Shown piece after piece: positions 19,871-40,514 of a stretch of 64,000 bases of DNA (its first letter is position 1; every line of letters begins with the position of its first letter). The notes beneath the pieces were generated by a model that saw nothing but the letters and a program-made list of their open reading frames with translations, did no database searches and had not been told where the DNA came from. Position numbers and translations under genes: made by a program. Origin of the DNA: Nocardioidaceae bacterium. GTDB lineage: Bacteria; Actinomycetota; Actinomycetes; Propionibacteriales; Nocardioidaceae. The stretch covers positions 4,461 through 68,460 of the forward strand of contig DASSHZ010000004.1 in the NCBI GenBank assembly GCA_035692425.1, read 5' to 3'.

Positions 19871-19888
19871 TCGGGGCCAGTCGGCTCC

Positions 19889-21947: not shown

Positions 21948-23450
21948 TCAGCAGACGGCCCGCAGCGACTGCCCCGTTCCGCCGCTGTGGCCCGAACCAG
22001 CTGGCCCGCCGGACCGCGGGTGCGGGCGCTCGCTCGCGGCGATCGCCAGGTGCGCGAGCCGCCGGATCTCCGCGAAGTCGGGGTGACCGGGGTCGATCAC
22101 CTCGTCGGTGAACGCCAGGCTGCTCATCCGGGCCCCGCGCATGCGCCGGGCCAGGTCCACGAACGCCGGCAGATCACCTTGCGGTATGTCGGTGGTGACT
22201 GTGGACCCGACCGCGTGGTCGATGGCCGGCAGTCTCAGCAGCAGGTTCATCGGGCTGGCCTGGTTGACCAGGGCGCCGAGCAGGCAGCGCTGGCGGAGCA
22301 TGCGGTCGTAGTCGCTGTATCCCTGCCGGACCCGGACGTACCACAGGGCCTGCCACGCGTCGAGATGCTGCCGGCCCGGGTGCAGCACGAGGTCGGGGTG
22401 CGCCGGGTCGCCGACGACCAGGGTGTGCGGTACGTCGACGGTGACGCCCCCGAGCGCGTCGATCACGTCGAGGAAGGCGCGCATGTTGACCACCACGGAG
22501 TAGTCGACCCGCAGGCCTAAGGTCGCCTCGACCGCCTGCCTGGTGGCGACCAGACCAGGGTCGCCCACGCCGGGGAGAAGGTTGCTATGGGTCACCCCGA
22601 CCAGCTCCCAGACCGCGTTGAGCAGGCAGGTGTCGCCGCAGTCGAAGCCGTGCGGGTAGAGCCGATGGAAGGGGGAGCCGGTCGGGAACGGCACGTTCTC
22701 CAGGTTGCGGGGCAGGCTCAGCAGCACCGTGTTGCCGGTGGTGGTGTCGATGCTGGCCACGATGACCGTGTCAGTGCGGGTTCCCCACCGGTCCGGCCCC
22801 GCGTCGCTGCCGAGCAACAGGACGTTGACCCGCGGCGCGAGCGCGTCCACCGGGTTGTCCAGCGGGGGCCCAGACACCCGTACGTGCTGGTTCGCGGCCG
22901 GACCGCCGGCCGTCGTCCCCGGCCGGCTTGATCCTCCCGGCGACGCGGTCGGTCCCCCGAGCGCGGACGACTGCCCGCCGGTAGCGGGGAATACCGCTTC
23001 GAGGAGCCCGTGCTGAGCGGAGGCGTAGCGCGCGCCCTGCACCCCCAGCCACGCGACTGGTACGCAAAGCGCCAGCACGACGGAAGTGGCCAGCGCTTGC
23101 TGGAACCGGTTCAGCGGCCAGCCACGAAGGGCCACGTGACTGGCCGCGATCACCAGGCACCAAAGCCCGGCGAACAAGGGAGCGGCCAGCTCCAGCGCGG
23201 TGAGGGCGCGCGGCCGGACGGCCGCCTCGACCAGCAGCTTGGTCAAGCTCCCGGTCGCGACCACCGCGGCAACACCGCCCACGACCGCCAAGAACGCGGC
23301 CAGGATCGTCCCACCCGCAGCCCGCCGGCCGGCCGCAACCAAGCCCGCCCCGGGCAGGACTGCACCGAGCAGGGTCAGTCCGAGCAGCCGACGCATCTCC
23401 CTCGGCCGATGAGGCTCTCCGGTGCCGACCGTGCCGTCCCACTGCCCCAT
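21948..23450 (-). CDS. LCP (LytR-CpsA-Psr) family glycopolymer-to-peptidoglycan ligase
   Basis: N-terminal TM segments, a Pro/Gly linker, then VNVLLLGSDAGPDRWGTRTDTVIVASID, the core LCP motif. Confidence 0.85.
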   Translation of the reverse strand: MGQWDGTVGTGEPHRPREMRRLLGLTLLGAVLPGAGLVAAGRRAAGGTILAAFLAVVGGVAAVVATGSLTKLLVEAAVRPRALTALELAAPLFAGLWCLVIAASHVALRGWPLNRFQQALATSVVLALCVPVAWLGVQGARYASAQHGLLEAVFPATGGQSSALGGPTASPGGSSRPGTTAGGPAANQHVRVSGPPLDNPVDALAPRVNVLLLGSDAGPDRWGTRTDTVIVASIDTTTGNTVLLSLPRNLENVPFPTGSPFHRLYPHGFDCGDTCLLNAVWELVGVTHSNLLPGVGDPGLVATRQAVEATLGLRVDYSVVVNMRAFLDVIDALGGVTVDVPHTLVVGDPAHPDLVLHPGRQHLDAWQALWYVRVRQGYSDYDRMLRQRCLLGALVNQASPMNLLLRLPAIDHAVGSTVTTDIPQGDLPAFVDLARRMRGARMSSLAFTDEVIDPGHPDFAEIRRLAHLAIAASERPHPRSGGPAGSGHSGGTGQSLRAVC

Positions 23451-23854
23451 GTCGAAGCCTTCCTGTGCGCCTCACACCCCGTTGTGACGGGCGCCGACGA
23501 CAAGGGGACGCAGCAGGCGGGTCGCGCGTTGCCCGGCCGCCGACACTCGCTTCGACCTGCTGGTCTCCGGGCCCACCTGGCGCAAAGCGCGTCAAAGGCG
23601 CACCGGGCGCGACGGTGCCGCCACTGATGCACGGCTCGACCTCGCCCTGGAAGAACGGCTCTCCGCCATGGCCGGGTCAGCGTCCAACAGCCACCTGGTG
23701 ACGTCGGTCATCGCACTTCTCCGCTGGGTTCCTAGCCTCGACCGGCGGACCCACCGCCTCTTCCGCGGAAATACTTCACGCCGCCTGGTGGGTGCCCTAC
23801 TGTTCTCTCAACGGGCTCGTGGGGAGCCTTGCGTACTGTTTGTACCAAACCACC

Positions 23855-23892
23855 GTTACGAAGCGGTCGGCCGCTTCGCCGTATTTGGGGGG
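23855..23892 (+). promoter_or_regulatory. GTTACGAAG...GGGGGG element with internal hairpin GAAGCGG-TCGG-CCGCTTC upstream of the beta-propeller gene
   Basis: Looser third copy of the GTTAnA...GGGGGG motif seen at 27143 and 36375. Here the G-run also serves as the SD for GTG 23898. Confidence 0.3.
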
Positions 23893-23897
23893 ATGCT

Positions 23898-25019
23898 GTG
23901 TTGGGTGCCATCTCGCGTTCGCTGGTCTCGCGGCTGCTGCTGCTGTTCGGGGCCCCACTGTGCCTGGTGCTCGCCGCGCTCGCGCCGGCGCAGGCTGCCC
24001 TGACGCCCGTCGCCACGTCGCCGATGACCTTCTGGCAGACCAACGGCCGGGTCCAGGCGATCCTGGCCACCCCGGGTGCGCTCTACATCGGGGGCACCTT
24101 CACCCAGCTGATCGGCCCCAGCGGGCAAACGGTTTCGGTGCAGAACATCGCGGCTCTCAGCCCGACCACCGGCGCACCGCTGTCGGGGTTCAGCGCGGCG
24201 GTCAACAAGCAAGTCTGGGACTTCGCGCTGTGCGGGACGACGCTCTACGCGGTGGGCGACTTCGGCTACGCCGGCTCGGTACGGCGGCAGAAGGCGGCCG
24301 CCTTCAACGCCTCGACGGGCGCCCTGCTCAGCTGGAACCCGAAGGCCAACGGTCGGATCTACTCCGCCGTGTGCACCTCATCCTCGGTCTACCTCGGCGG
24401 CAACTTCACCGCCCTGCACGGGACCAGCCGGCCGTACCTGGCGGCAGTCGACCCGACGAGCGGCGCCATCCAGTCGGGCTGGAACCCCACCCCCAACAAC
24501 ACGATCAAGGCGATCGCACCCAGCCCAGACGGCACCCAGCTGGTCGTCGGCGGGCTCTTCACGAACATCTCCGGCACCTCGAAGCAGCACATCGCGTCCG
24601 TGAGCCCATCGACCGGAGGGCTCCAGTCCTGGCCCGCAACGACCACCGACCCGCTCGACGACGTGATCGTCGTGGGCAGCCAGGTCTTCGCCGCCGGCGA
24701 GCACAACATGACCGAGGCGTTCTCGCTCAGCACCGGAGCGCGCCAGTGGGTGAGCACAGGCAACGGCAACGTGCAGACCCTGACCGAGCTCAACGGCGTG
24801 CTGTACGTCGGCGGGCACTTCTCCATCTGGAACAACCTGACGGCGAAGCACATCGTGGCGCTCGACCCGGCGACTGGTAGGACCGTCACCTGGTCGATCA
24901 ACGAGAACTCGGCGCTGGGCACCTGGGCACTGGCCAACCAGAACGGGATGCTGTACGTCGGCGGCGACTTCACCAAGATCAACCGCGAGCTGGTGCAGCA
25001 CCTCGCGGTCTTCGAGTAG
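23898..25019 (+). CDS. Secreted beta-propeller repeat protein
   Basis: Signal peptide LLLLFGAPLCLVLAALAPAQA. Seven recurrences of a (L/V)Y(I/V/L)GG-x-F-type blade motif: LYIGGTF, LYAVGDF, VYLGGNF, LVVGGLF, VFAAGEH, LYVGGHF, LYVGGDF. Confidence 0.7.
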   Translation: MLGAISRSLVSRLLLLFGAPLCLVLAALAPAQAALTPVATSPMTFWQTNGRVQAILATPGALYIGGTFTQLIGPSGQTVSVQNIAALSPTTGAPLSGFSAAVNKQVWDFALCGTTLYAVGDFGYAGSVRRQKAAAFNASTGALLSWNPKANGRIYSAVCTSSSVYLGGNFTALHGTSRPYLAAVDPTSGAIQSGWNPTPNNTIKAIAPSPDGTQLVVGGLFTNISGTSKQHIASVSPSTGGLQSWPATTTDPLDDVIVVGSQVFAAGEHNMTEAFSLSTGARQWVSTGNGNVQTLTELNGVLYVGGHFSIWNNLTAKHIVALDPATGRTVTWSINENSALGTWALANQNGMLYVGGDFTKINRELVQHLAVFE

Positions 25020-25122
25020 CGGACCTGGTCCGGCGGTCCGGAACGGCACCGGGCCGCCGGTTGAGCCGCAGCCCGCCGGCTGAGCTTTGTCGAAACGAAG
25101 GGGCCTGAGCGCCGACGGGCGC

Positions 25123-25857
25123 TCAGCAGGCCTTGGCAGCGATCTGCAGTGAGTTGGCCGACATCTTGGTCGCAGACTGCGACAGCTTCGCGGCCTTGGC
25201 CACGGTGGCTGAGATCACCGATCGCAGGTCGGACTCCTGAGTGGCTAGGGACTTCAGTGCGCTGCGCACCTGCCCGCTGGCCACCGACTGGGGGGCCCCG
25301 GCGACCCCCCGGCGCGCCGTCTCCAGTGCCTTGGCGTCGCTACGGACGTGAGACGCCCGTTGGCCCACGATCCGGAGGTCGTGGTCCAGTACCGAGACCC
25401 GCGTCTTGAGGTGCTTGTGGGCAACCGTCGCCGCCCCCACCGCCTTGACGACCTTGTCGTGGTCGGCCCAGACATCACTGCACACCCGGACCGGAGCCTT
25501 GTAGGCGGCATGCCGCTCGGCGGCCAGCGCGGAGCGGGCGTTGCGCACGGCCACGCTCATCGCCCGCCGGGCACCCGGCAGGTCATCGTCGGTCTGGAGC
25601 TTCTTCGCGGCAGCGACGAGCCGGAAGAGCGAGCCGGTGAGCGCCTTGTTGGCGGCAACTATCTCCTTGTCGGCAGTGGGGTCGGTGGTGGTTGGGTCAC
25701 TCGACTGGCTGGTGGTGGACGGTGCGGTCGAGGCTGGGGTGGTCGCGGACGTCGGTGCCGCGTGCGGGCCGGCCCCATGCATGCACCCCGTCGACGAAAG
25801 CGCTACGGCGGCGACCGCCGCGACCATGGCCGCCCGGCGGCGAAGGCTGGGCCTCAT
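25123..25857 (-). CDS. Lipoprotein of unknown function (Thr/Ser/Pro linker plus helical domain)
   Basis: Lipobox VALSSTGC. Its ATG overlaps the stop of the upstream GT4 gene (ATGA). Confidence 0.6.
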   Translation of the reverse strand: MRPSLRRRAAMVAAVAAVALSSTGCMHGAGPHAAPTSATTPASTAPSTTSQSSDPTTTDPTADKEIVAANKALTGSLFRLVAAAKKLQTDDDLPGARRAMSVAVRNARSALAAERHAAYKAPVRVCSDVWADHDKVVKAVGAATVAHKHLKTRVSVLDHDLRIVGQRASHVRSDAKALETARRGVAGAPQSVASGQVRSALKSLATQESDLRSVISATVAKAAKLSQSATKMSANSLQIAAKAC

Positions 25858-27056
25858 GCCCGGCTCCTGGCAGTGGCCCACCGCCGGGCGCCGGAGCGGC
25901 GCCGGGCCAACTCGACGTACACCTGCTCGACCTCGTCGGTCACCCGATCCCAGTCGTACCGAGCAACCATGGCTTCGCCCAGGTCAGCAGCCGCGGCCCG
26001 ATCCTGGTCCGAGCCCCGCAGAGCGCTGGCCAGCGCCCGCTGCAGCGAAGACACGTCCCCCGACCCGAACAACCATCGACCCGGAGCGGGCGCCGAGCCG
26101 AGCACCTCGACGTGCGGCCCGATGTCGCTGGCCACGATCGGCAGGCCAAAGCTCAGCGCCTCGAGCAGAGTCAGCGGCAGCCCCTCCAGCAGCGAGGGCT
26201 GGACGAACGCCTTGGCATGCGCGTACAGCGACGCGAGATCCGGCCCCAGCACGGCGCCGGTGAAGAGCACTCGGGGGTCCGCCACCGCCAACTCCTGCAG
26301 CACGCGCACGTGGGCGTCGGTGAACGAGGAGTCGCCGACGATGACGAGCCGGCGCCCGCCGGGCACGCCGCGGTAGGCCCGCAACAGCAGGTCTACACCC
26401 TTCTCCGGGACCAGCCGGCCGACGAACAACAGGTACTCCCCCGGAGCGAGGCCGCGGTCGCGAACCGGCCCATCGGCTGCCGGCCCCGGGCGCGAGATGC
26501 CGTTGGGAATGTAGTCGCACTCGCGGCCGAAAACCTCCCGGTAGTGCTGTTGCAGCGACTGCGAGACCACAATCGTGCGATCGGGCACGTGTCCGCTCAT
26601 CCAGTGGGCGACCCCCAGCACCGCTCGAGCCCCGCCGCCCCACTTCGCGCGCTGGTGATCCAGCCCGTGCACGGTCAGCACGACGCCCGCGGACGACAGC
26701 AGTCGCGGCACTGGGGCGACCAGTCCCGGGCCAAGTGCGTGGTAATGGAAGATGTCGTAGCCAGAGGAGAGTGCCAGAGCTGTCGAGCTGGCGCTGTGCA
26801 CGATGGCGTCCAGGCGCTTGGAGCCGACCGTCGGAGCCGGCCTAAGGTGGATCCCGGCGTACGTCGACCCGCTCGACCGTCCGTAAGACGCCCGCGTGAA
26901 CGCAGTGACCTCGTGTCCGCGGGCGGCCAGCCGGCGGCCGATCTCCTCCACGTGGTGCTCGATGCCGCCGACGGCAGCGGGCAGCCCCTTCTGGCCGATC
27001 ATCGCGATGCGAAGACCGCCGCGACGGCCCGGCGCGACGCCGGAAACCTTGAGCAT
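25854..27056 (-). CDS. GT4-family glycosyltransferase
   Basis: GT-B N-terminus IAMIGQKGLPAAVGGIEHHV and EX7E region EGLPLTLLEALSFGLPIV. Confidence 0.9.
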   Translation of the reverse strand: MLKVSGVAPGRRGGLRIAMIGQKGLPAAVGGIEHHVEEIGRRLAARGHEVTAFTRASYGRSSGSTYAGIHLRPAPTVGSKRLDAIVHSASSTALALSSGYDIFHYHALGPGLVAPVPRLLSSAGVVLTVHGLDHQRAKWGGGARAVLGVAHWMSGHVPDRTIVVSQSLQQHYREVFGRECDYIPNGISRPGPAADGPVRDRGLAPGEYLLFVGRLVPEKGVDLLLRAYRGVPGGRRLVIVGDSSFTDAHVRVLQELAVADPRVLFTGAVLGPDLASLYAHAKAFVQPSLLEGLPLTLLEALSFGLPIVASDIGPHVEVLGSAPAPGRWLFGSGDVSSLQRALASALRGSDQDRAAAADLGEAMVARYDWDRVTDEVEQVYVELARRRSGARRWATARSRA

Positions 27057-27142
27057 GCTGGACCCCCCCAGACGAACTCAGTTACCCCCGACCCCACCGG
27101 CCTCTACGATGCCGGTTCGCATCCCATCGTGCCATGAGAATC

Positions 27143-27165
27143 GTTAAAGTTATCCCAGAGGGGGG
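27143..27165 (+). promoter_or_regulatory. AT-rich/G-run motif GTTAAAGTTATCCCAGAGGGGGG upstream of the ST1-wzy-wzz-wzx unit
   Basis: 16/23 ungapped identity to 36375-36397. Both copies lie in divergent intergenic regions of the same cluster and in the same orientation. Confidence 0.3.
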
Positions 27166-27291
27166 AAACTGAGGCACCATTGGACATGTTGCCTGGCGTC
27201 CCGGGGGGGCTTCCGCGTTTCCCGCAACCGCCAGGGTGGAGGTCGCCGGTGGGGACTGCGTGGGGACACCAATCGAGGAGGGGAACGACTG

Positions 27292-28152
27292 GTGGAGCTG
27301 AGGAGGTTGGGGGGCAGTCTCGCCGCGCCGTTGCGAGCTGCACTGCTCGGCGGACAACGCATGACACCCGGGTTCCTGATCGTGGGCACCAAGCGCGGCG
27401 GCTCCACGGCTGTCTACCACTGGATCACCATGCACCCGCAGGTGGCGCCCGCCCGGACCCGCAAGGGCACCCACTACTTCGACGTGAACTACCACCGGGG
27501 CGACGCCTGGTTCCGTAGCGGCTTCCAGCACCCGCACCCGAGGTGGTTGGTCACCGGCGAGGCGAGCCCCTACTACATGTTCCACCCGCTTGCCCCGGCG
27601 CGGATCCGGCAGACGCTGCCCGATGTCCGGCTGATCGTCCTGCTCCGAGACCCGGTACGTCGAGCGTGGTCGCACCACCAATACGAGACCGCCCAGGGCT
27701 ACGAGGAGCTGGCGTTCGAGCAGGCCCTCGACGCCGAGGGTGAACGGTTGGCCGGCGAGGAGGAGCGGCTCGTCTCCGACCCCACCTACGAGAGCTTCGC
27801 CCACCGCCATCACGCCTACCGCGCCCGGGGCCGGTACGCCGACCAGCTCGAACGGCTGTACCAGCTGTTCCCACTCGAGCAGGTGCTGGTGCTGCAGAGC
27901 GAGCGCCTCTTCGCGGACCCGGCACCTGAGCTGAGCCGGGTGTGGGCCTTCCTCGGGCTGGAGCCGGTCGAGCTCGGCGGCCTGCGGCCGATGAAGGAGG
28001 GCCCCAAGGGCGGCGGCCCCATGCCCGAGGCGGCCCGCCAGGAGCTGGCCGGCTACTACGAGCCGCTAAACCAACGGCTATACGCCCTGCCGGGCGTTGA
28101 CTTCCGGTGGGACGGGGCCATCACGCCGGAGGCCGGGGTGGTCGCCGGATGA
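27292..28152 (+). CDS. Sulfotransferase-domain protein (ST1); alternative start ATG 27361
   Basis: 5'-PSB-like loop VGTKRGGST and 3'-PB-like LLRDPVRRAWSHH. RBS GAGGAGG precedes GTG 27292. Its stop overlaps the wzy-like start (ATGA). Confidence 0.8.
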   Translation: MELRRLGGSLAAPLRAALLGGQRMTPGFLIVGTKRGGSTAVYHWITMHPQVAPARTRKGTHYFDVNYHRGDAWFRSGFQHPHPRWLVTGEASPYYMFHPLAPARIRQTLPDVRLIVLLRDPVRRAWSHHQYETAQGYEELAFEQALDAEGERLAGEEERLVSDPTYESFAHRHHAYRARGRYADQLERLYQLFPLEQVLVLQSERLFADPAPELSRVWAFLGLEPVELGGLRPMKEGPKGGGPMPEAARQELAGYYEPLNQRLYALPGVDFRWDGAITPEAGVVAG

Positions 28153-29615
28153 GCATGTCGATCCGGGTGCTCCGTCGACGCCGGTTCGCCGGCGAGGCGC
28201 TGACCGTGCTCGGTGCCGTCCTCGCCACCGCGGCTGCCGCGGCGACCGGGTTGTCGGCTACCTCGGGCAGCAAGACGCTGCTGTTCCTGCCGATCGTGGT
28301 CGTCATCGCCCTCGGCCTTGGGGTGCTCGCGCTCACCCGGTTCAGCGCCTTCGTCTACCTGGTGCTCGGGGTCCGCTCCGCGGTCGACCTGTTCCGGCTC
28401 AGCGGTTCCGCCGCGGGCAACACGGCAACAAACTCGGTGGCAGCCAAGGGCGCCGACCCATCGACGATCCTCGCCGTCCTGTTCCTGCTGGCCGCTTTCG
28501 TGTGGCTGAGCGCGCAGTACTTCAAGAACGGCCGGGTCAACGGGTCCTGGCTGCGTACGACGCTGGTGCTCTTCGTCACGGCGAGCATGCTCAGCGCGGC
28601 CGGCTCGGCCGAGCCGAAGGTCAGCCTCATCGAGGGCCTACGGATCCTCGCCATCGTGATGATGTACCTGGTCCTCGAGCAGCTGATCGTCGACCGGGCC
28701 ACCCTCCGGCGTACGCTCGTCGCCTGCTACGTCTCGCTGCTCTTCCCGCTCGGCTACACGGTCTACGGCTTCCTGTCCGGCCACCCGGCCGCCGACTACA
28801 AGGGCGGCTTCACGCGCATCGCCGGTCCGTTCGCGCAGTCGACCATCTACGCGCGCTACCTCGGCTTCATGATCATCTTCGGCGTCGCGCTGATCCCGGT
28901 GCTCAACAAGCGCGCCCGGCTCGCGATGATCTCGCTGGTCGGACTCTCCTCGGTCTTCCTGCTGCTGACGCTCACCCGGGGCGCCATCATCACGACGGCC
29001 CTCGGAGTGCTGATCGTCGCCGTGGCCCAGCGCCGCCAGAAGCTGGTGGTCGGTTTCGTCGTCGCGGCCATCGTCGCGTTGCTCGTGATGCCCGGGCTGA
29101 GCGCCCGCCTGTCGGAGGTCGATGCCCAGCGGGCCGCCGGCGGTGGCCCGACCGGGAACACGCTGGCTTGGCGTATCAGCTACTGGACCGAGGTGCTCCC
29201 GCTGGCCAACAAGAACCCGGTGACCGGTATCGGGCTCGACATGACGCAATACAACACCAACGCGGCGAAGCAGCCGCACAACGACTTCATCCGGGCGTAC
29301 GTCGAGACCGGCCTCATCGGGCTCGCCACTTATGTGCTCTTCCTGTGCGCTCTGGTGAACACGGCGATCCGCGCCGTACGCCGGGCCCCGCCGCGAAGTT
29401 CCGACGCTGCGATCGCGATCGGGTTCCTGGCCTGCTCGGTCGCGTTCGTGGTCGAGAGTGCCGCGGCGAACGTCATCTCCAGCGTCGTCTGCCTCTGGTA
29501 CCTGATGGCGTTCGCGGCCGCCGGCAACGCGGTGACCCGGCTCAACCCGACTCCCGACCCGGTGGCGCCGTCCGGCGCGACGACGGCGCCGCTTGCCCTC
29601 CCAACGAAAGGTTAG
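28149..29615 (+). CDS. O-antigen ligase/polymerase-like membrane protein (Wzy_C family)
   Basis: Polytopic protein. Loop motif WRISYWTEVL...NPVTGIGLD...PHNDFIRAYVETGLIG is typical of the Wzy/WaaL family. Confidence 0.8.
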   Translation: MSMSIRVLRRRRFAGEALTVLGAVLATAAAAATGLSATSGSKTLLFLPIVVVIALGLGVLALTRFSAFVYLVLGVRSAVDLFRLSGSAAGNTATNSVAAKGADPSTILAVLFLLAAFVWLSAQYFKNGRVNGSWLRTTLVLFVTASMLSAAGSAEPKVSLIEGLRILAIVMMYLVLEQLIVDRATLRRTLVACYVSLLFPLGYTVYGFLSGHPAADYKGGFTRIAGPFAQSTIYARYLGFMIIFGVALIPVLNKRARLAMISLVGLSSVFLLLTLTRGAIITTALGVLIVAVAQRRQKLVVGFVVAAIVALLVMPGLSARLSEVDAQRAAGGGPTGNTLAWRISYWTEVLPLANKNPVTGIGLDMTQYNTNAAKQPHNDFIRAYVETGLIGLATYVLFLCALVNTAIRAVRRAPPRSSDAAIAIGFLACSVAFVVESAAANVISSVVCLWYLMAFAAAGNAVTRLNPTPDPVAPSGATTAPLALPTKG

Positions 29616-29622
29616 GCACCAA

Positions 29623-30705: not shown

Positions 30706-30715
30706 GCGTCTCGCG

Positions 30716-32272: not shown

Positions 32273-32292
32273 CGCAGAGATCCGGGTCCGGC

Positions 32293-33135: not shown

Positions 33136-34649
33136 TGCCCAGCCAAGAAGGCCGTGAGCCCGCCGGACACGGTCAGCTGCTGCGGCTCACTACCGACCGC
33201 GAGGGTCGAGCTGCCGGTCGGCCGGCCGGCGGTCGGCCGCCCCACCAAGGCAGCCTGGTCACCGTGGGCCAGCCGAAGGTGCACGGGCTGCGAGGACGCC
33301 GACCACACGAACAGGTCGGTCCGGCCGGTGCGCTCGAAGGCCACCCCGGTCAGCCCGTTCGCGGCCACCGGGGTCACCTTGGCACCGCGCGCGGCCGCGA
33401 CGATGGCCGCCAGGGCCAGGCCCGACGGTCGGACCGCGCCGTCCGGGTCGAGCAGGCCGTATCTCGGCTCATCCGCGTGGCGGCCGCTGGGGTTGACCGC
33501 CAGGGGCAGCCACACGACCATGTGCACGCCACCGGCGAGCAGCAGGCTCACGGTCTTGACCAGCTCCGCGGCGCGCTCGTCGGCGGACGCGTCCGAGCCC
33601 TCCCAGAACGACCCGACCTCCCAGGCTTGGATGGGTGTCGTCGCCGGGGTGGTGGCTCGCAGGTAGGTGAGCAGGTCGGGCACGCTGGACCAGGCCTCGT
33701 AGAAATGGATCTGGCGTACGGCGAACACCCGCTCGCGGGCGAGCTGCTGCACCAGGTCGAGGTACTGCAGGTCTCGACGCCCTTGCTCGGAGTCGAGCAC
33801 GGCCTGGAGCCCGGCCAGGTCGCTCACCTGTGGGAGCTGGCCGGAGCGGGTGCCGAACCGGCGCTGGAAGTAGGCGTTGTAGGCCTGCACAGCCTGGTCG
33901 TCCTGGCCCAGTGCCACCAGGCGGGCCGCGATCCCGTAGCCGTAGGTGGTGCTGCTCAGCCCCGGCCCTACCACCACCGCCTCCGGGCTCGCGGCGTGAA
34001 TGGCCTGTGCGGCCACCCCGATGAGCTGGCGGTACTGCGCCGCCGTGCCCGCCCAGTTGCTGGGGGAGTTGATCTCGTTCTCCACCGCGTACTCGACGAC
34101 GCCCCGCGGCGCGTAGCGCCGTACGGCGGCCTCGACGAAGGCGCGGTAGGCGCGGAGGTCGAGAGGCATCGCGGACTCGGTCTTGTTGCCCTGCCCGCGC
34201 TCGTACTGTGCCTGGCCGCCGGTTGCCCAGCAGCGCCCGACCCGCAGTTTGAGCATCATGCGCTCCCCGAGCCGGGCCGACTCGTTGACGAACTTGTCCG
34301 CCTGGTGCCAGTCGAAGATGCCCTTGACCGGCTCGACCTTGCACCACACCAGCTCGTAGAACGTGACGCTGCCGGAGATCGAGCTCAGGTACGACGTGTA
34401 CGAGGACAGTCGATGGATGTCCCACTTGGTGCCCAGTACGGCCGGGCCCGCCAGGCGAGCCGACGGCATTGGCCGGATCGACTCCATCGGCCCCTCGGCA
34501 TGTCGATGACCGCCGCCGCGGAAGCCGGGGGTGCAGGCGGAGCCGGCCAGCGCCACCCCAACCAGGAGAGCGGTGAGCCGGAGCGCCCGCCCACGACCCA
34601 GCGGCCACCGCTCCGGCGAGGCGGCCGGCCGCGGCGGATGCGCCCTCAC
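33132..34649 (-). CDS. Lipoprotein with glycoside-hydrolase-like TIM-barrel features
   Basis: Lipobox LVGVALAGSAC, then VWCKVEPVKGIFDW and YAVENEINSP (clan GH-A-like N-E acid/base context). GTG 34649 overlaps the ST3 stop (GTGA). Confidence 0.55.
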   Translation of the reverse strand: MRAHPPRPAASPERWPLGRGRALRLTALLVGVALAGSACTPGFRGGGHRHAEGPMESIRPMPSARLAGPAVLGTKWDIHRLSSYTSYLSSISGSVTFYELVWCKVEPVKGIFDWHQADKFVNESARLGERMMLKLRVGRCWATGGQAQYERGQGNKTESAMPLDLRAYRAFVEAAVRRYAPRGVVEYAVENEINSPSNWAGTAAQYRQLIGVAAQAIHAASPEAVVVGPGLSSTTYGYGIAARLVALGQDDQAVQAYNAYFQRRFGTRSGQLPQVSDLAGLQAVLDSEQGRRDLQYLDLVQQLARERVFAVRQIHFYEAWSSVPDLLTYLRATTPATTPIQAWEVGSFWEGSDASADERAAELVKTVSLLLAGGVHMVVWLPLAVNPSGRHADEPRYGLLDPDGAVRPSGLALAAIVAAARGAKVTPVAANGLTGVAFERTGRTDLFVWSASSQPVHLRLAHGDQAALVGRPTAGRPTGSSTLAVGSEPQQLTVSGGLTAFLAGQ

Positions 34650-35572
34650 GCCACCGCCCCGAGCTGGGCCGTGAGCTCCGCCGCCAGCCGCCGGACCGCA
34701 GGGTCGATCTCCAACGGCCGGTCGCCGTGGGCGGCCCGCCGCTCGATGTGCGCGCACAGGCCCGGGTCGTACGGGAAGTCGAGGAACTCGCACAGCCGGC
34801 GCATGCCCTTCTCCGGCTCGGCCACCGAGTCGTCGTACGACGACAGCAGCACGTCGTCTCGACGGTCCAGGCCCAGGTCGAAGAACAACCGGTTGCGAAG
34901 GACCCAGAAGAGGGCGGCCGCGGTAGGTGGGGTCATGGTGTCCAGGTCGAAGCTGCGGACCAGCCGGACCGAGCTCTCCGACAGCCGTCCGCCCTGCCAG
35001 ATGGTCGCTGCCCCGCCGGCAGCGATCACCCGGAGGGCGCGCAGGTCCGCGTCACCGAACTTGGCCACCGCCGACCGCGCCCGCGCGTCCACGTCCCGGA
35101 CCACCCAGACCGCCCGGCCGGGCGGTACGCCGGGCAGGGCGAGCAGATGGTCCACCCGGTGGCTGTCGCAGAGCGGCTTGATCAGCACGATCGGGTGCCG
35201 GCTGGCGGCGATCACCTGCCGCAGGGTCGCGTCGTCGCGCAGCCGATAGCGGTGGAAGAGCGTCCGGTCGCTCTCGTTGCGCACCTCGATCGCCGGAGCG
35301 GCGTCCAGTCCGCGCAGCAGCATGTTGGTGCCGGACCGTTGCAGCCCGACCACGTAGACCGGCCGCGCGGTGCCCGGTGGCACGCCCTGTCGGCGCCGAA
35401 ACGACCGCTTCGCCGCCGACGTTCTCAGCCTCCCGACCGGGTCGAGCCGCTTCTCCTCCGCCAGCCGGGCCAGCCCCTCGGTCCGGAGCCAGCGCAGGTG
35501 GCGGGCGACCCGGCGAGCGCCATACCTGAGCGCCGACGGCTCGGTGGCGCCCGGCCGGTCGACTCGACTCAC
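34646..35572 (-). CDS. Sulfotransferase-family protein (ST3); start uncertain
   Basis: VYVVGLQRSGTNMLLRGL and WVVRDVDARARSAV. GTG 35572 overlaps the stop of the upstream ORF. The listed 535-aa ORF is a frame-fusion artefact. Confidence 0.75.
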   Translation of the reverse strand: MSRVDRPGATEPSALRYGARRVARHLRWLRTEGLARLAEEKRLDPVGRLRTSAAKRSFRRRQGVPPGTARPVYVVGLQRSGTNMLLRGLDAAPAIEVRNESDRTLFHRYRLRDDATLRQVIAASRHPIVLIKPLCDSHRVDHLLALPGVPPGRAVWVVRDVDARARSAVAKFGDADLRALRVIAAGGAATIWQGGRLSESSVRLVRSFDLDTMTPPTAAALFWVLRNRLFFDLGLDRRDDVLLSSYDDSVAEPEKGMRRLCEFLDFPYDPGLCAHIERRAAHGDRPLEIDPAVRRLAAELTAQLGAVA

Positions 35573-36306
35573 GAGGCCGCCTCCGGCGGAGTCCGGTGGT
35601 GCGCCCGGAGCACCGAGTCCAGCTCGGCCAGCCGGCCGGGGCGTCGTGCCGCGACGCGCTCCCGGAGCACCGCAATGTCGTCGGCCTCCTCGCCGTACCC
35701 GGGCGCGAGGAACGCGGCGTAGACGGCCGGGTCGACGGCTAGCGCGTCGGTGAGGACCGCGGTGTTGTCGATCAGGGGCATGGGGCGCGGGTCGACCCGG
35801 TACATCCAGGGGGCGAGCGACGCGCCGTCCGCGAGAAGCATGGCCAGCCGGTGACCGCCGTCGCCCACGTGCACCGCGCGGTCGAGGGTGGCTCCGCTGT
35901 CGCTCACCCGGGGTCCCGAGGTGCCGCGCAGCGTCACCGGGTAGCGCTGGTCGAACCCGGTAGCCCGGTAGGACCGCCACAGTGCGGCCGCGGTCGCGAC
36001 CCGCTCGGCGAACTGCCGCTCGAGCAGCGCCGGGTCCCGCAGAACCCAGGGCCGGAACCGCGCCATAGCGACCTTCTCGAACCAGACCCGGTATGGATGC
36101 TCCCGCAGGGCAGGCAGCCAGGCGGCGGGATCCTGGTCCGGACGGGCGGCGGCGAACTCGAAGAACTGCGCCCGGATGGCGACGTCGTAGCGCAGCGGGG
36201 AGATCAGCCACGCGATATCGATGGGCTCCGCACCGGCTCTCTTGGGACGCCACGTGGCGGCTCGGCGCACGGTACGGCGCGCGGTCGGGATAGGTGATCG
36301 TCTCAT
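35569..36306 (-). CDS. Hypothetical protein, first gene of the minus-strand sulfotransferase operon; weak ParB/Srx-like motif
   Basis: 245-aa ORF with coding-like composition, coupled to ST3. It contains PIDIAWLISPLRYD ... HVGDGGHRLAMLL, resembling the DGxHR core of the ParB/sulfiredoxin fold. Confidence 0.5.
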   Translation of the reverse strand: MRRSPIPTARRTVRRAATWRPKRAGAEPIDIAWLISPLRYDVAIRAQFFEFAAARPDQDPAAWLPALREHPYRVWFEKVAMARFRPWVLRDPALLERQFAERVATAAALWRSYRATGFDQRYPVTLRGTSGPRVSDSGATLDRAVHVGDGGHRLAMLLADGASLAPWMYRVDPRPMPLIDNTAVLTDALAVDPAVYAAFLAPGYGEEADDIAVLRERVAARRPGRLAELDSVLRAHHRTPPEAAS

Positions 36307-36374
36307 GGTGACGCGAGCAGCCGCTGGGCGCGGCACGACTCCCCCTCGAGGTCGACTGGTCGGTGGCGGACCCG

Positions 36375-36397
36375 GTTACAAGTGTTTCACAGGGGGG
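36375..36397 (+). promoter_or_regulatory. AT-rich/G-run motif GTTACAAGTGTTTCACAGGGGGG upstream of the GT4-ST4-ST5 unit
   Basis: Partner of 27143-27165. Lies 100-122 nt upstream of GTG 36497. Confidence 0.3.
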
Positions 36398-36496
36398 TCA
36401 CCAGGTCCGAAGATCGGCCGGATTCCCCCGTTCTGCCCCGACTACGGAGCGTGATGTGATGGACTCGTAAGACACAGTTCCGGGGGGAGGTTCCGC

Positions 36497-37759
36497 GTGC
36501 GCATCCTGGCGGTGAACAAGTATCTGTACCGTCGTGGGGGCGCGGAGAGCTACCTGCTGGACCTGACCGACCTGCAGCGCCGGCGCGGCCACGTCGTCGA
36601 GCTGTTCGGCATGCGCCACCCGGAGGACTCCGCGTCGCATCCGCTGTCGGACACGTTCCCGTCGTACGTCGGGCTCGACCCGGCGCCCGACGGTCTGCGC
36701 GGGCTCGCGGCCGCCGGCCGGATGGTCTGGTCGGTCGCCAGCGCCCGGGGCATGGCGCGGGCGCTGGCGCGCGTCCAGCCAGACGTCGTGCATCTGCACA
36801 ACATCTACCACCAGCTCTCACCGTCCATTCTCGGTCCGGTACGGCGGGCGGGCGTCCCCTGCGTCATGACGTTGCACGACTACAAGCTGGCGTGTCCGAG
36901 CTACCAGATGCTCGACCACGGCGAGCTGTGCGACGCCTGTGTCACCGGCGGTACCTGGCACGCCGCTCAGCGCCGCTGCAAAGGCGGGTCGCTGGCGGCG
37001 AGCTCCCTGCTGGCGCTGGAGTCCGGCGTCCATCGGCTGACCGGCGCCTACCGCGGAGTCGACCTCTTCCTCAGCCCCAGCGCCTTCCTGGCCGGCGTGA
37101 TGCGCCGGGCCGGGGTGTTCCCCGACCGGCTGCGGGTCGTCCCGCACTTCGCCGAGGTCACGCCGGTCCGGCCCGACCCGGAGCAGCGGAGTGGCTTCCT
37201 GTTCGCCGGCCGGCTGTCGCGGGAGAAGGGGGTGGACGTGCTCATCGACGCGATGGGCGCGCTGCCCGAGACGAGCCGGCTCTCGGTGGCGGGCGACGGT
37301 CCCGAGCGGGCGGCGCTGCAGCGTCAGGCGGCAGTCGTCGCGCCAGGGCGGGTGGCCTTCCTCGGACGGCTGTCCAAGCCCGCTCTGCAGGATCTGCTGC
37401 AGGCCTCGCTGGCCTCGATCCTGCCGGCCCGCTGGAACGAGAACCAGCCGATGACGGTGCTCGAGGCCCTCGGCGCCGGCGTGCCGATGGTCTGCACCGA
37501 TCTCGGCGGCCTGCCCGAGCTGGTTTCGCACGGCGTCGACGGGCTCGTCGTACCCCCCGACGACCCGGTGGCGCTGGCGGCGGCCCTTGTCGCGCTGTCG
37601 ACCGACCCTGCGCGGGCGGCCCGGATGGGCGCCGCAGGGAGGGCGAAGGTCGAGCGGGAGCTCAGCCCGCAGGCCCACCTGGACCGGCTCGACGCGGCGT
37701 ACGCCGAGGCTGCCGAGCGCCGTGGCCGGCGGCTGAGCCTGGGCTCGGTGCCGGCATGA
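36497..37759 (+). CDS. GT4-family glycosyltransferase
   Basis: MRILAVNKYLYRRGGAESY N-terminus and NENQPMTVLEALGAGVPMVCTDLGGLPELV. RBS GGGGGGAGG. Confidence 0.9.
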   Translation: MRILAVNKYLYRRGGAESYLLDLTDLQRRRGHVVELFGMRHPEDSASHPLSDTFPSYVGLDPAPDGLRGLAAAGRMVWSVASARGMARALARVQPDVVHLHNIYHQLSPSILGPVRRAGVPCVMTLHDYKLACPSYQMLDHGELCDACVTGGTWHAAQRRCKGGSLAASSLLALESGVHRLTGAYRGVDLFLSPSAFLAGVMRRAGVFPDRLRVVPHFAEVTPVRPDPEQRSGFLFAGRLSREKGVDVLIDAMGALPETSRLSVAGDGPERAALQRQAAVVAPGRVAFLGRLSKPALQDLLQASLASILPARWNENQPMTVLEALGAGVPMVCTDLGGLPELVSHGVDGLVVPPDDPVALAAALVALSTDPARAARMGAAGRAKVERELSPQAHLDRLDAAYAEAAERRGRRLSLGSVPA

Positions 37760-38742
37760 CGGTCCGGCCCGAGGCGCCGATCCGGGTGCTCTACCTAGCC
37801 GGGAGCGGCCGCAGCGGGAGCACCCTGCTCACCAACATCCTCGGCCAGGTGGACGGCGTGTTCGCGGCCGGGGAGCTCCGCTTCCTCTGGCAGCGCGGGG
37901 TGGTGGAGAACCACCTGTGCGGCTGCGGCCGGCCGTTCGACAGCTGCCCGGTGTGGGCCTCGGTCATGGCGGACGTGACCGACGGCGGCCCGCCGCTCGA
38001 CGCTGCCGGCATCGCGGCCCGGCTGCGCCGCCGGCTGCGGCTGGGCCGGGTGCCCACCATGCTGGTGCGCCGCGCGCTGGGCCGGCCCCCCGTGCCACCG
38101 CACCGCGACGACGAGCTCATCGCCCGCTTGTACCGGTCGCTGGCGAGCCATCACGGCACCGCCCTGGTCGTCGACTCCTCGAAGCTGCCGCCGTACGGCA
38201 TGCTGGTCTCCCAGCTGCCCGGCGTCGAAGTGTCCGTGTTGCACGTCGTCCGGGACCCCCGCGCCGCCGCGTTCTCCTGGCGCCGCTCGCGGGTGACCGG
38301 TAACCGCACCGACGCCGACGAGCAGATGCAGCGCCACCCACTGTGGAAGAGCGCCAGCCTGTGGCTCGCCTGGAACGCTCTGACCGCGCTGGTCTGGCGG
38401 CGCGGCCGGTACCTTCGGCTCCGGTACGAGGACTTCGTCGGTGACCCCGAGCGCGCGACCGCCGCGATTCTCGACCTGGTCGGGTTGTCCGGCGCCGAGC
38501 TGCCCTTCGAGTCGACCACGTCGGTGCGGCTCGCGCCCACCCACTCGGTCGCGGGCAACCCGAACCGGCACCGGTCCGGCTCGACCCGGATCCGCCTGGA
38601 CGACGAGTGGGTGGAGGGCATGGCCAGGGGGCAGCAGTCCCTGGTGAGCGCCATCGCCGCCCCCGGGATGCTCTGGTTCGGCTACCGTCGGGCTGCGCGC
38701 CGTACGCCGGAGAGCGGGTCCGACCTCAAGGAGGCCGGATGA
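37756..38742 (+). CDS. Sulfotransferase-family protein (ST4)
   Basis: LYLAGSGRSGSTLLTNIL and HVVRDPRAAAFSW. ATGA overlap with GT4. Confidence 0.8.
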   Translation: MTVRPEAPIRVLYLAGSGRSGSTLLTNILGQVDGVFAAGELRFLWQRGVVENHLCGCGRPFDSCPVWASVMADVTDGGPPLDAAGIAARLRRRLRLGRVPTMLVRRALGRPPVPPHRDDELIARLYRSLASHHGTALVVDSSKLPPYGMLVSQLPGVEVSVLHVVRDPRAAAFSWRRSRVTGNRTDADEQMQRHPLWKSASLWLAWNALTALVWRRGRYLRLRYEDFVGDPERATAAILDLVGLSGAELPFESTTSVRLAPTHSVAGNPNRHRSGSTRIRLDDEWVEGMARGQQSLVSAIAAPGMLWFGYRRAARRTPESGSDLKEAG

Positions 38743-39653
38743 CCCTCGCGCTGGTGTCCGGCACGGGCCGCAGCGGTACGACGCTCGTCCAGGAGATCCT
38801 GTCGCGCCATCCCGCGGTCGGGTTCATCTCGGGGCTGGACGACAAGCTCCCCCGGCTGAACCTCGCCGGCCGGCTCAACGGCACCCTCTACCGCCGGACG
38901 GCCCCCCGCGACCCAAGGATGCGCGCGCTGACCGAGAGCGTCCGGGTGCTGGAGCGCGGCCGGACCCGGGTGGCGCCCTCGGAGGCCTACCGGCTCATCG
39001 ACCGCCAGGTGATGGCCGGCTTCTCCAAGCCGTGCCGCGACCTGTTGGCCGAGGACATGACCCCCTACCTGCAAGGTCGGTTCCGCGACTTCTTCGGCGC
39101 CCGGATGGCCGCGCAGGGCTGCCAGGTGCTCCTACAGCACCTAACGGGCTGGCCGCGAACCGGGTTCCTGCGGGCTGCCTTCCCAGACCTCAAGGTGGTC
39201 AACGTGGTGCGGGATGGCCGGGCGGTGGCCAGCTCGTGGCTCCAGATGGGCTGGTGGGACGGCTGGCAAGGTCCCGACAAGTGGATCTACGGCCCACTGC
39301 CGGCCGACCTCCGAGCCGACTGGGAGGCCGCCGACCGGTCCTTCGTCGTCCTCGCGGCGCTGGGCTGGAAGATGCTCATGCGCGCCTTCGCCGACGCCCG
39401 CGAGCTGTGCCCGCCCGGGCAGTGGATCGACATCCGCTACGAGGACCTGATCGACGACCCCAGGCACCACGTCCGGCTCATGCTGGACTTCCTCGAGCTC
39501 GACTGGAGCCCGCGGTTCGAGGCGGGGCTCGCCCGGCACATTATCCACCGCGGTCGCAGCCAGTCGTTCCGCCGCGAGCTCACCGCAGCCCAGGTGGCGG
39601 CCATGGACCGAGTGCTCGCCGAGCCGCTGCAGGAGTGGGGCTATCTAGACTGA
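38739..39653 (+). CDS. Sulfotransferase-family protein (ST5)
   Basis: LVSGTGRSGTTLVQEIL and NVVRDGRAVASSW. ATGA overlap with ST4. Confidence 0.8.
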   Translation: MTLALVSGTGRSGTTLVQEILSRHPAVGFISGLDDKLPRLNLAGRLNGTLYRRTAPRDPRMRALTESVRVLERGRTRVAPSEAYRLIDRQVMAGFSKPCRDLLAEDMTPYLQGRFRDFFGARMAAQGCQVLLQHLTGWPRTGFLRAAFPDLKVVNVVRDGRAVASSWLQMGWWDGWQGPDKWIYGPLPADLRADWEAADRSFVVLAALGWKMLMRAFADARELCPPGQWIDIRYEDLIDDPRHHVRLMLDFLELDWSPRFEAGLARHIIHRGRSQSFRRELTAAQVAAMDRVLAEPLQEWGYLD

Positions 39654-40371: not shown

Positions 40372-40514
40372 AGTTACTCTCCTAGGAAACCACCATTCAT
40401 CCAACTTTGACGTCATGCCGAATCGGTGAAGATCTTGAAGCCAGGGCAGGATCCGCTGAATTGATTATACCAACGTTCCCCATCTGCGCGAGTGTTGCTC
40501 CCTTGATTCTGCTT

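Follow-up and report, generated by a model that had tools for sequence, protein, structure and literature searches.

A Wzx/Wzy-type locus with five sulfotransferase genes is a candidate cassette for a multiply sulfated polysaccharide in Actinomycetota

Introduction

What does a glycan locus make when it encodes five sulfotransferases (STs) beside two glycosyltransferases (GTs)? The question is raised by a stretch of 64,000 nucleotides from a soil bacterium of the Nocardioidaceae (GenBank assembly GCA_035692425.1, contig DASSHZ010000004.1, positions 4,461 to 68,460 of the forward strand), which is called the window here and supplies the coordinates given below. A first-pass annotation, made from the letters of the window, had proposed that the block at 21948-39653 is a Wzx/Wzy-type locus that builds a heavily sulfated short repeat unit, and the present analysis supports this interpretation at the level of sequence. 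We put the probability at roughly 0.7 that the block at 23.9-39.7 kb is a cassette for Wzx/Wzy-dependent polysaccharide synthesis, with a repeat unit that would be sulfated several times before export. Furthermore, the locus does not stand alone; cassettes of its kind are widespread.

Textbooks describe sulfated polysaccharides from animals and algae, and rhizobial LpsS and KpsS represent cases of sulfated surface polysaccharides in the Proteobacteria. The mycobacterial sulfotransferases Stf0-Stf3 are cytoplasmic enzymes that depend on 3'-phosphoadenosine 5'-phosphosulfate (PAPS) and contain Arg in the 5'-phosphosulfate-binding (5'-PSB) loop. They act on trehalose glycolipids or menaquinone and are not known from Wzx/Wzy loci. 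Bacterial sulfated polysaccharides have been stated to be essentially cyanobacterial (PMC8205485; PMC13390465), apart from a few capsules of marine Gram-negatives.

Results

The block encodes five divergent sulfotransferases

The sulfotransferase genes of the block are as follows.

27292-28152 (+): ST1, heparan-sulfate-3-O-sulfotransferase-like carbohydrate sulfotransferase, 286 aa; Pfam Sulfotransfer_1, 1.3e-14, 54.6 bits; ATGA-coupled to wzy
32293-33135 (-): ST2, sulfotransferase, 280 aa; Pfam Sulfotransfer_3, 1.3e-26, 94.7 bits; ATGA-coupled to the upstream gene X
34646-35572 (-): ST3, divergent sulfotransferase, 308 aa; Pfam Sulfotransfer_3, 4.4e-11, 43.9 bits
37756-38742 (+): ST4, sulfotransferase, 328 aa; Pfam Sulfotransfer_3, 2.8e-13, 51.1 bits; ATGA-coupled to the glycosyltransferase gene GT4b
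38739-39653 (+): ST5, sulfotransferase, 304 aa, at the right end of the cassette; Pfam Sulfotransfer_3, 9.7e-24, 85.3 bits; ATGA-coupled to ST4

The first-pass annotation had recognised these open reading frames (ORFs) by ten short motifs, all of which were found at the positions and on the strands that it gave. The ORFs were then compared with the curated profiles of Sulfotransfer_1 (PF00685) and Sulfotransfer_3 (PF13469), the gathering cut-offs of which are 22-27 bits. All five scored above these cut-offs; the refuting outcome named in the first-pass annotation, a lack of match to such profiles, did not occur, and their assignment as sulfotransferases stands. The locus proteins are on record as NCBI third-party annotation entries HET7172694-HET7172710, where the five ORFs already carry the label 'sulfotransferase'.

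A generic 5'-PSB pattern matched six times in the six frames of the window, five of them inside the block. The sixth match (G-L-A-R-S-G-S-T, 9655, + strand) was tried as a further sulfotransferase and rejected as a chance match, the ORF at 9548-10882 being a xylose-isomerase-like TIM barrel (AP_endonuc_2, 3.9e-25). Since the short motif also occurs in this TIM barrel ORF, it is not diagnostic by itself.

We next consider the cofactor-binding residues. The 5'-PSB loop, G-x-x-K/R-S/G-G-T/S-T, is present in all five STs and is at least 90% conserved in each orthologous class, with Lys-Arg in ST1 and Arg in ST2-ST5; it reads R15-S-G-T-T in ST2, where it is conserved, and Q78-R-S-G-T-N83 in ST3, where it is invariant. 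The residues of the 3'-phosphate-binding (3'-PB) site are R119/R124/S127 in ST1, R129/S137 in ST2, R159/S167 in ST3, R166/S174 in ST4 and R158/S166 in ST5, all of them conserved to at least 90%. Most ST pairs gave no significant BLAST match, and the best pair shares 27% identity; the five STs are, to judge by their sequences, very old paralogues. No transmembrane (TM) segment was detected by hydropathy in any of them, and the cytoplasmic location that had been proposed for them holds.

ST1 aligned over its full length to heparan-sulfate glucosamine 3-O-sulfotransferases (3-OSTs; PDB 1t8t, E=6.5e-28) and also matched the sulfotransferase domains of NDST enzymes. Among 24 aligned family members, the 5'-PSB loop GTKRGGST (including K34 and R35), His61-x-x-Asp64 and the 3'-PB residues Arg119, Arg124 and Ser127 are invariant; His61 and Asp64 correspond to H186 and D189 in the active site of 3-OST. 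The matches of the other STs to solved structures are more distant. ST2 and ST5 gave weak matches to the tyrosylprotein sulfotransferase (TPST), CurM-ST and StaL group, those of ST2 being to TPST2 and the CurM ST, and as single sequences ST3 and ST4 matched only OLS/CurM sulfotransferase domains. With a profile of the ST4 family, 44 PDB matches were obtained, by name essentially all sulfotransferases or sulfotransferase-fold proteins (best, the OLS ST 4gox, 2.6e-12). The Pfam match of ST3 spans residues 71-114 only. Its family profile matched TPST and other STs at both ends and yielded 16 PDB matches, 14 of them named sulfotransferases (best, TPST1, 2.8e-5); depending on the TPST entry, it is the PSB region or a C-terminal segment that matches best.

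Two STs carry additional conserved elements. In the ST4 class, an invariant C-G-C-G-x5-C (C55, C57 and C64; residues 55-64, window 37918-37947) is inserted after the 5'-PSB loop. This Cys cluster may be a metal-binding or disulfide element, and we know of no characterised sulfotransferase that has one. In ST3, an Arg-rich N-terminal extension (residues 1-70, window 35362-35572) precedes the PSB loop. Because R24, W28, R30, G33, R36, E39, E40, L43 and R48 of this extension are invariant across 17 orthologues, it is likely to be functional, perhaps as a docking or membrane-association helix.

The sulfotransferase genes are interleaved with a polymer assembly system

The genes for repeat-unit extension, flipping and polymerisation are as follows; GT4 denotes glycosyltransferase family 4.

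25854-27056 (-): GT4a, glycosyltransferase, 400 aa; Pfam Glyco_transf_4 and Glycos_transf_1
28149-29615 (+): Wzy-type polymerase, 488 aa, about 10-12 TM segments by hydropathy; Pfam Wzy_C, 3.2e-22
29623-30705 (+): Wzz-like polysaccharide co-polymerase (PCP), 360 aa, 2 TM segments, without a kinase domain; Pfam Wzz, 4.4e-7, 30.5 bits against a gathering cut-off of 25.5
30728-32272 (+): Wzx-type flippase, 514 aa, about 12 TM segments; Pfam Polysacc_synt, 1.4e-21, and MatE, 1.8e-18
36497-37759 (+): GT4b, glycosyltransferase, 420 aa; Pfam Glycos_transf_1, 1.4e-31, and Glyco_transf_4, 5.1e-16

Pfam confirmed the earlier assignments of these five genes and of a neighbouring LytR-CpsA-Psr (LCP) gene. 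The start of Wzx is more likely 30728 than 30716. By hydropathy, GT4a, GT4b and the protein hyp255 described below have no TM segments.

The window has about 70% G+C and its stop-to-stop ORFs overlap heavily; gene models were set by third-position GC content (GC3). All 15 genes of the block are intact ORFs, and the same locus with the same gene calls is present in two independent Logan assemblies (identical contigs). The earlier gene inventory was right in what it listed and incomplete: four further genes, placed by GC3 and the Logan gene calls, are X at 33132-34649(-), hyp255 at 35569-36336(-), hyp244 at 25123-25857(-) and a beta-propeller gene at 23898-25019(+).

Four-nucleotide ATGA or GTGA overlaps occur at seven junctions: ST1/Wzy, GT4b/ST4 and ST4/ST5, which had been reported before and are present in the sequence, and hyp255/ST3, ST3/X, X/ST2 and GT4a/hyp244. 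The genes form four tightly coupled units, GT4a-hyp244, ST1-wzy-wzz-wzx, hyp255-ST3-X-ST2 and GT4b-ST4-ST5, which flank two divergent intergenic regions defined by the gene coordinates.

27057-27291: divergent intergenic (promoter) region 1, between GT4a-hyp244 and ST1-wzy-wzz-wzx
36337-36496: divergent intergenic (promoter) region 2

No operator common to the two regions was found; they share no 9-mer or longer word.

The multi-sulfotransferase cassette is conserved in Actinomycetota

ST1 has more than 2,100 relatives. A GTDB scan with one genome per species found 256 species with an ST1 relative, and the best 80 loci were classified with the window proteins and one iteration of hidden Markov models, using envelope coordinates and counting STs within 10 kb of ST1. 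The ST counts are lower bounds, 28 of the 80 locus views being incomplete. The first-pass annotation had suggested looking in Actinomycetota for three or more sulfotransferases together with wzx and wzy. At least three STs lie beside the same Wzx/Wzy/Wzz core in 39 of the best 80 loci, at least five in 16, and one locus has nine. Among these 39 multi-ST loci, Wzy, Wzx and Wzz are present in 32-36 (Wzz in 36), GT4 in 34, hyp255 in 30 and X in 25.

Oryzihumus leptocrescens has the same syntenic five-ST block, and three to five STs occur in cultured Pedococcus, Phycicoccus, Knoellia and Terrabacter and in a Ruaniaceae strain. A search based on X found a compact cassette in Micromonospora sp. WMMD708 and Phytohabitans suffuscus, with exactly one each of ST1-ST5, GT4a, GT4b, Wzx, Wzz, Wzy and X. 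As evidenced by the Oryzihumus, Micromonospora and Phytohabitans cassettes, the ratio of five STs to two GTs that had been noted in the window holds, and this complement is conserved in three orders, Propionibacteriales, Micrococcales and Micromonosporales. In the Streptosporangiales (Actinomadura and relatives), a simpler ST1-Wzz-Wzx-propeller version with one ST was found. Activated-sludge Dermatophilaceae, among them Nostocoides and Ca. Lutibacillus, account for several of the cassettes. In ten Dermatophilaceae loci mfd adjoins the cassette, as it does in the window. Together with the native base composition, this linkage argues for long residence rather than recent transfer.

The unclassified ORFs of 41 multi-ST loci were clustered, and recurrent neighbours were checked by Pfam. 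Thirteen sister loci encode a protein about 470 aa long that carries at its C-terminus an adenosine 5'-phosphosulfate (APS) kinase domain (APS_kinase, 7.5e-55), for example at 17221-18627(-) of locus L042. A CysN-type GTPase gene lies in the Terrabacter locus and at the edge of the Oryzihumus locus, and a gene of the inositol-monophosphatase/CysQ family recurs beside multi-ST loci. Genes for making PAPS and for removing its product PAP thus travel with the cassette, which would be hard to explain unless the STs were active. No recurrent candidate for an initiating phosphoglycosyltransferase (WbaP/Bac_transf or WecA/Glycos_transf_4) was found in the 41 loci, and this enzyme is presumably encoded elsewhere.

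Two side observations concern these loci. The N-terminal region of the linked APS-kinase protein, about 280 residues, has no Pfam match; it could be a novel domain for regulation or substrate channelling in a PAPS synthase dedicated to the cassette. Locus L006 (Logan SRR12688413; including 3433-4437(+)) has at least nine ST genes around a single Wzy/Wzx/Wzz set, the highest ST density of the bacterial glycan loci examined. It also encodes an anion transporter of the TauE/SafE family and a beta-helix protein that is Pel9A-like.

hyp255 is linked to Wzx flippases

One of the four added genes defines a new protein family linked to Wzx flippases.

35569-36336 (-): hyp255, 255 aa, first gene of the hyp255-ST3-X-ST2 operon; invariant HxxDGGHR motif

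A profile search of Pfam, NCBIfam and the PDB sequences gave no match for hyp255, and an exhaustive profile search retrieved 315 representatives of its relatives. In the AlphaFold2 (AF2) model, which has a mean predicted local distance difference test score (pLDDT) of 94.9, the invariant H146-x-x-D149-G-G-H152-R153 is placed where strand 145-149 meets helix 151-159. The top Foldseek matches were mostly sulfiredoxin (Srx), KorB and ParB N-domains, at weak scores (E=0.36-1.1 over about 70 residues; target-normalised TM-score about 0.4). We take the motif to resemble the phosphate-binding motifs 'GCHR' of Srx and 'GxxR' of ParB, a likeness that falls short of demonstrating membership of the fold.

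The genomic context of hyp255 is more telling. An N-terminal Wzx flippase was fused to hyp255 in all six long relatives tested, and one other relative was fused to an S-adenosylmethionine (SAM) methyltransferase. Two of the Wzx~hyp255 genes lie in loci with STs of the ST4, ST5 and ST1 classes, a GHL15 hydrolase-like gene, Wzy and Wzz. In the census, loci with hyp255 had a mean of 4.63 STs and those without it 1.62. We infer that hyp255 is a cytoplasmic flippase partner specific to sulfotransferase-bearing systems; whether it would serve as an adaptor, a checkpoint or an extra modifying enzyme is speculative.

X is a predicted PslG-like hydrolase encoded with putative extracytoplasmic accessories

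The remaining three of the added genes encode predicted extracytoplasmic proteins.

33132-34649 (-): X, PslG-like lipoprotein of the glycoside hydrolase (GH) family 39 type, 505 aa; lipobox, catalytic residues, AF2 model and Foldseek
25123-25857 (-): hyp244, predicted lipoprotein or secreted helical protein; signal end ...ALSSTGC; ATGA-coupled to GT4a
23898-25019 (+): secreted beta-propeller, 373 aa, with an N-terminal signal-like segment; Pfam PQQ_2, 3.4e-8, and Rax2, 6.8e-7

The annotated model of X, 451 aa long, was rejected in favour of a 505-aa model. The relatives of X (n=216) have about 500 aa, and the extension carries the invariant lipobox Cys and the GTGA overlap with ST3; the revised start is the GTG at 34649, which overlaps the ST3 stop. 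Cys39 at the end of the signal peptide (the lipobox), E190-N191-E192 and W343-E344 are invariant among the relatives. X has no match in Pfam or NCBIfam, and some relatives bear the UniRef name 'GH42 N-terminal domain'. The AF2 model (pLDDT 87, core above 95) consists of a (beta/alpha)8 barrel and a C-terminal beta-sandwich, and its best Foldseek match was PslG (5bx9, E=5.9e-21), followed by GH39 (5jvk, 4.9e-17) and GH30 enzymes. In model and alignment, the invariant N191-E192 follows strand 186-189 and the invariant E344 ends strand 340-345. In clan GH-A/GH39 the acid/base Glu follows an Asn on strand 4 and the nucleophile Glu lies on strand 7, a pattern to which these residues conform in the model. 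By analogy, X is read as the locus's own extracytoplasmic endo-hydrolase, which would trim or release chains.

Of the other two genes, hyp244, which has no Pfam or NCBIfam match, recurs in 20 of the 39 multi-ST loci, and the beta-propeller gene is in 27. Beyond the cassette, a second secreted GH-like protein is encoded at 41489-42766(-). It has 425 aa, a Pro/Ser/Thr-rich linker and a weak GH42 match (E=0.004), and its homologues adjoin the cassette in loci L007, L049 and L052. It was tried as a paralogue of X and set aside; the common part is only a short W-x-x-x-EP-x-x-G-x-F-x-W motif.

The LCP gene adjoins the cassette in the window organism only

The first-pass annotation had counted an LCP ligase among the genes of the locus and proposed that it attaches the product to the cell wall.

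21948-23450 (-): LCP family protein, 500 aa, about four N-terminal hydrophobic segments by hydropathy; Pfam LytR_cpsA_psr, 1.4e-25

The alternative is a sulfated, anionic glycopolymer of the wall that contains no phosphate and is covalently attached to peptidoglycan by LCP in the manner of a teichoic or teichuronic acid analogue. The position of the gene, about 450 bp from the propeller gene and less than 4 kb from ST1, is in favour of this view, and a dedicated initiating transferase is absent in every cassette, as expected if housekeeping WecA/TagO primes the substrates of LCP enzymes. Housekeeping WecA/TagO primes O-antigens as well as wall polymers, so that the lack of an initiating transferase does not decide the matter. 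Conservation, in turn, gives wall attachment no support: at a threshold as lenient as E<=1e-2, no LCP homologue was found in the other fetched loci, among them syntenic cassettes viewed over the full 20 kb, and LCP was rejected as a conserved cassette member. LCP genes are multi-copy housekeeping genes in actinobacteria. In addition, Pfam scans detected no linkage-unit genes (TagO/WecA, TagA) in the window, and the PslG-like hydrolase is of a kind typical of released or loosely bound exopolysaccharides. We consider attachment of the polymer to the wall by LCP unlikely. Peptidoglycan attachment by LCP is possible in the window organism and is not a conserved feature.

Genomic surroundings of the cassette

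On both sides the block is flanked by conserved core-chromosome genes as identified by Pfam (mfd, eno, ftsB, ppx, ndh and cbs versus metB, msrA, greA and a PIG-L deacetylase). Genes of sulfur amino acid metabolism occur on both sides (16435-21914 and 50781-52154) and encode a PALP+ACT enzyme, the cystathionine gamma-synthase MetB, MsrA and a CBS-domain cystathionine beta-synthase-like protein. Because cbs and metB adjoin each other in other actinobacteria, about 30 kb including the cassette appears to have been inserted between them.

The right end of the cassette was set at ST5, downstream of which the ORFs have a GC3 of about 0.6 against about 0.9. Two of them, at 39781-41204(-), encode proteins of 211 and 229 aa with N-terminal hydrophobic signal-like segments, the second rich in Tyr, Trp and Cys. 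They have a GC of 0.52-0.60 and a GC3 of about 0.6, compared with about 0.9 for the genome, have no Pfam or NCBIfam match, and look like a compositionally foreign insert at the cassette edge. The gene at 42585-45500(+) encodes a 971-aa membrane protein with PAP2 phosphatase-like, protein-kinase/Bud32-like and C-terminal LPG_synthase_TM/MprF-flippase-like parts, an unusual fusion, with membrane lipids as its possible substrates. A ydaO-type cyclic di-AMP riboswitch (50427-50577(-), Rfam RF00379, 58.2 bits, E=6.8e-11) is upstream of the ORF at 48805-50517(-), the 570-aa product of which has a weak right-handed beta-helix signal; secreted beta-helix proteins recurrently adjoin the multi-ST cassette in nine other genomes. 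A tRNA-Cys with anticodon ACA called by ARAGORN (33836-33919(-), 84 nt) has no Rfam support, falls within the strongly coding sequence of X and is almost certainly spurious.

Discussion

A model for the synthesis of a sulfated polymer

Taken together, these observations suggest the following pathway. A lipid-linked sugar would be supplied by an initiating transferase encoded elsewhere, probably a housekeeping enzyme of the WecA/TagO type. The two cytoplasmic GT4s, the domains of which were identified, would extend it to what is presumably a short oligosaccharide. At the cytoplasmic face, the five soluble and divergent STs would use PAPS to sulfate this presumed acceptor, probably at different positions. 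hyp255, given its fusions to Wzx, may act at the flippase, conceivably as an adaptor or checkpoint that binds a nucleotide. Wzx would then flip the unit and Wzy would polymerise it under the control of Wzz. Outside the cell, the membrane-anchored X, which has the fold and the Glu pair of PslG, may trim or release the chains as PslG does, and the lipoprotein and the beta-propeller would be further extracytoplasmic accessories. The most likely product is a polyanion free of phosphate, either an exopolysaccharide or a capsule-like polymer; we infer its nature, its degree of sulfation and its cellular location from the genes.

Several points weigh against this interpretation. The window is part of a metagenome-assembled genome. 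Among the window genes scanned with Pfam there is no initiating phosphoglycosyltransferase, no nucleotide-sugar gene and no cysC or cysDN, just as the first-pass annotation had listed. At the position of the 3-OST catalytic Glu the ST1 family invariantly has Gly, and thus the chemistry of ST1 may differ. The closest solved structures of ST2, ST3 and ST5 are protein-tyrosine sulfotransferases, and some of these three could have a non-glycan acceptor. The Wzy_C domain also occurs in ligases and O-oligosaccharyltransferases, and the likeness of hyp255 to Srx and ParB is not significant (E about 0.4). Searches of the open-access literature, which may miss older cell-wall chemistry, found no report of the cassette or of sulfated polymers in Intrasporangiaceae, Micromonospora, Nocardioides or Actinomadura. 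The presence of sulfate esters in organisms that carry the cassette is thus a prediction from genes.

The same data admit a bolder version. Many actinobacteria may share a conserved polysaccharide hypersulfated to heparin grade, with as many as five sulfates per approximately three sugars. Its export would be gated by hyp255, as a hitherto unrecognised nucleotide-binding module of the ParB/Srx-like kind on, or fused to, Wzx, so that flipping is coupled to the completion of sulfation. We regard this version as tentative and its truth as doubtful. The makers would then be Intrasporangiaceae/Dermatophilaceae, including activated-sludge lineages, Nocardioidaceae and Micromonosporaceae, and the polymer would be a phosphate-free polyanion of the Gram-positive envelope or matrix; this part, too, we offer as a conjecture with the odds against it.

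Other readings of the sulfotransferases and of Wzy

Apart from LCP-dependent wall attachment, three alternatives to a multiply sulfated polysaccharide were weighed. According to the first, the TPST-like ST2, ST3 and ST5 or some of them have other substrates, for example a small molecule or tyrosines in secreted proteins, and the glycan is sulfated by just one or two STs. This would fit the best matches among solved structures, which are protein-tyrosine sulfotransferases for these three and polyketide ST domains for ST4. However, these weak matches (1e-5 to 1e-6) go back to the general Sulfotransfer_3 fold. The gene order speaks for a glycan, in that translational coupling links ST genes with GT4b, with the hydrolase gene and with each other, and the five ST classes travel with the glycan machinery in three orders. 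Moreover, Pfam revealed no peptide precursor and no polyketide synthase or non-ribosomal peptide synthetase gene in the locus. We judge this alternative improbable.

According to the second, the Wzy_C protein is a ligase or an O-oligosaccharyltransferase, and the product is a sulfated oligosaccharide on protein or lipid. The Wzy_C family (PF04932) takes in WaaL ligases and PglL-type O-oligosaccharyltransferases, the locus has few GTs, and possible acceptors (the secreted propeller and the lipoproteins) are encoded alongside. A chain-length regulator of the Wzz/PCP type is nevertheless encoded directly downstream of wzy and is kept in nearly all multi-ST loci, and a PslG-type endo-hydrolase makes sense only with a polymer. 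A ligase in place of a polymerase is thus very improbable. The third, that the five ORFs are P-loop NTPase-like proteins without ST activity and the polysaccharide is unsulfated, is scarcely credible: sulfotransferases are indeed members of the P-loop NTPase clan, and ST2-ST5 have Arg in place of the canonical 5'-PSB Lys, but all five ORFs pass sulfotransferase gathering thresholds, the PAPS-specific 3'-PB Arg and Ser are conserved, and sister loci contain APS kinase, CysN-like and CysQ-like genes.

Comparison with known systems

A Wzx/Wzy cluster with sulfotransferases is already established for synechan. The xss cluster of Synechocystis sp. PCC 6803 is a Wzx/Wzy/PCP cluster, the sulfate of its product has been shown chemically, and it also combines STs of different subfamilies, with sulfation of the lipid-linked unit modelled as a step at the cytoplasmic face (PMC8205485, Maeda et al. 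2021). The proportions differ: xss has two STs to eight GTs and two sulfates per eight sugars, in contrast to five STs and two GTs in the window cassette. Moreover, xss is plasmid-borne in a diderm and includes an outer-membrane polysaccharide export (OPX) protein and the regulators XssQ, XssR and XssS, whereas the window cassette lies on a monoderm chromosome, has no regulator and has the PslG-like lipoprotein and hyp255. Pfam scans of the window locus found no two-component, STAND or OPX protein; the last is not expected in a monoderm.

For the wps-1 locus of Actinoplanes missouriensis, a sulfated polysaccharide has been proposed with chemical verification pending, and both of its STs are required for sporangium formation (AEM 2026, PMC13390465). 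The window cassette and wps-1 have in common the Wzx/Wzy/Wzz core, a heparan-sulfate-type ST like ST1 and a glycoside hydrolase. The wps-1 gene set comprises two STs, GT2, GT26, GH26, a SAM methyltransferase, DUF4262, a kinase-like protein and a Wzz that bears a C-terminal export domain. The GT4 pair, the PslG-like protein and hyp255 of the window cassette are absent from it, and the window locus in turn has no methyltransferase, kinase-like or DUF4262 gene. On the gene contents as described, orthology of the two was rejected.

Individual components can also be compared. Relative to the animal 3-OST-1, 3-OST-3 and 3-OST-5 (PDB 1t8t, 3bd9 and 1zrh), ST1 keeps the 5'-PSB Lys, the His-x-x-Asp and the 3'-PB Arg and Ser, but it is a soluble, cytoplasmic, bacterial protein and not a Golgi enzyme, and it has the Glu-to-Gly replacement. 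Like PslG, the GH39 protein of the P. aeruginosa psl operon, X belongs to an exopolysaccharide locus, is extracytoplasmic and has a Glu pair and a TIM barrel with a beta-sandwich; it is, however, only 16-17% identical to PslG and a predicted lipoprotein of a monoderm, and its substrate would be a sulfated glycan. The window STs share with the mycobacterial Stf0-Stf3 an actinobacterial host and the Arg loop, but they are encoded inside a Wzx/Wzy locus. Among marine Proteobacteria, Vibrio sp. KMM 8419 and Cobetia marina KMM 1449 have sulfated capsule or lipopolysaccharide polysaccharides with a sulfotransferase in or near the gene cluster; the abstracts of these reports point to no ST number near five, and the hyp255 module is absent from all of these systems. 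What distinguishes the present cassette is its high and conserved ST:GT ratio, five ST classes orthologous across three orders, linked PAPS genes and a new Wzx-associated family.

Significance of the cassette

A heavily sulfated surface polymer is of a barely documented type in Gram-positive bacteria. The carriers of the cassette include culturable and genetically accessible Micromonospora, Terrabacter, Knoellia, Oryzihumus and Phycicoccus, in which the prediction is directly testable, and the STs are candidate enzymes for regiospecific microbial glycan sulfation, which is relevant to heparin-like biomanufacturing. In addition, the extracellular polymeric substances (EPS) of granular sludge contain abundant sulfated glycoconjugates, the producers and pathways of which are reported as unknown and the responsible sulfotransferases as not found (PMC10483923). 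The cassette is a candidate genetic basis of this sulfated material. If the bolder, hypersulfated version is true, it would be the genetic source of the unexplained sulfated glycosaminoglycan-like EPS of wastewater granular sludge.

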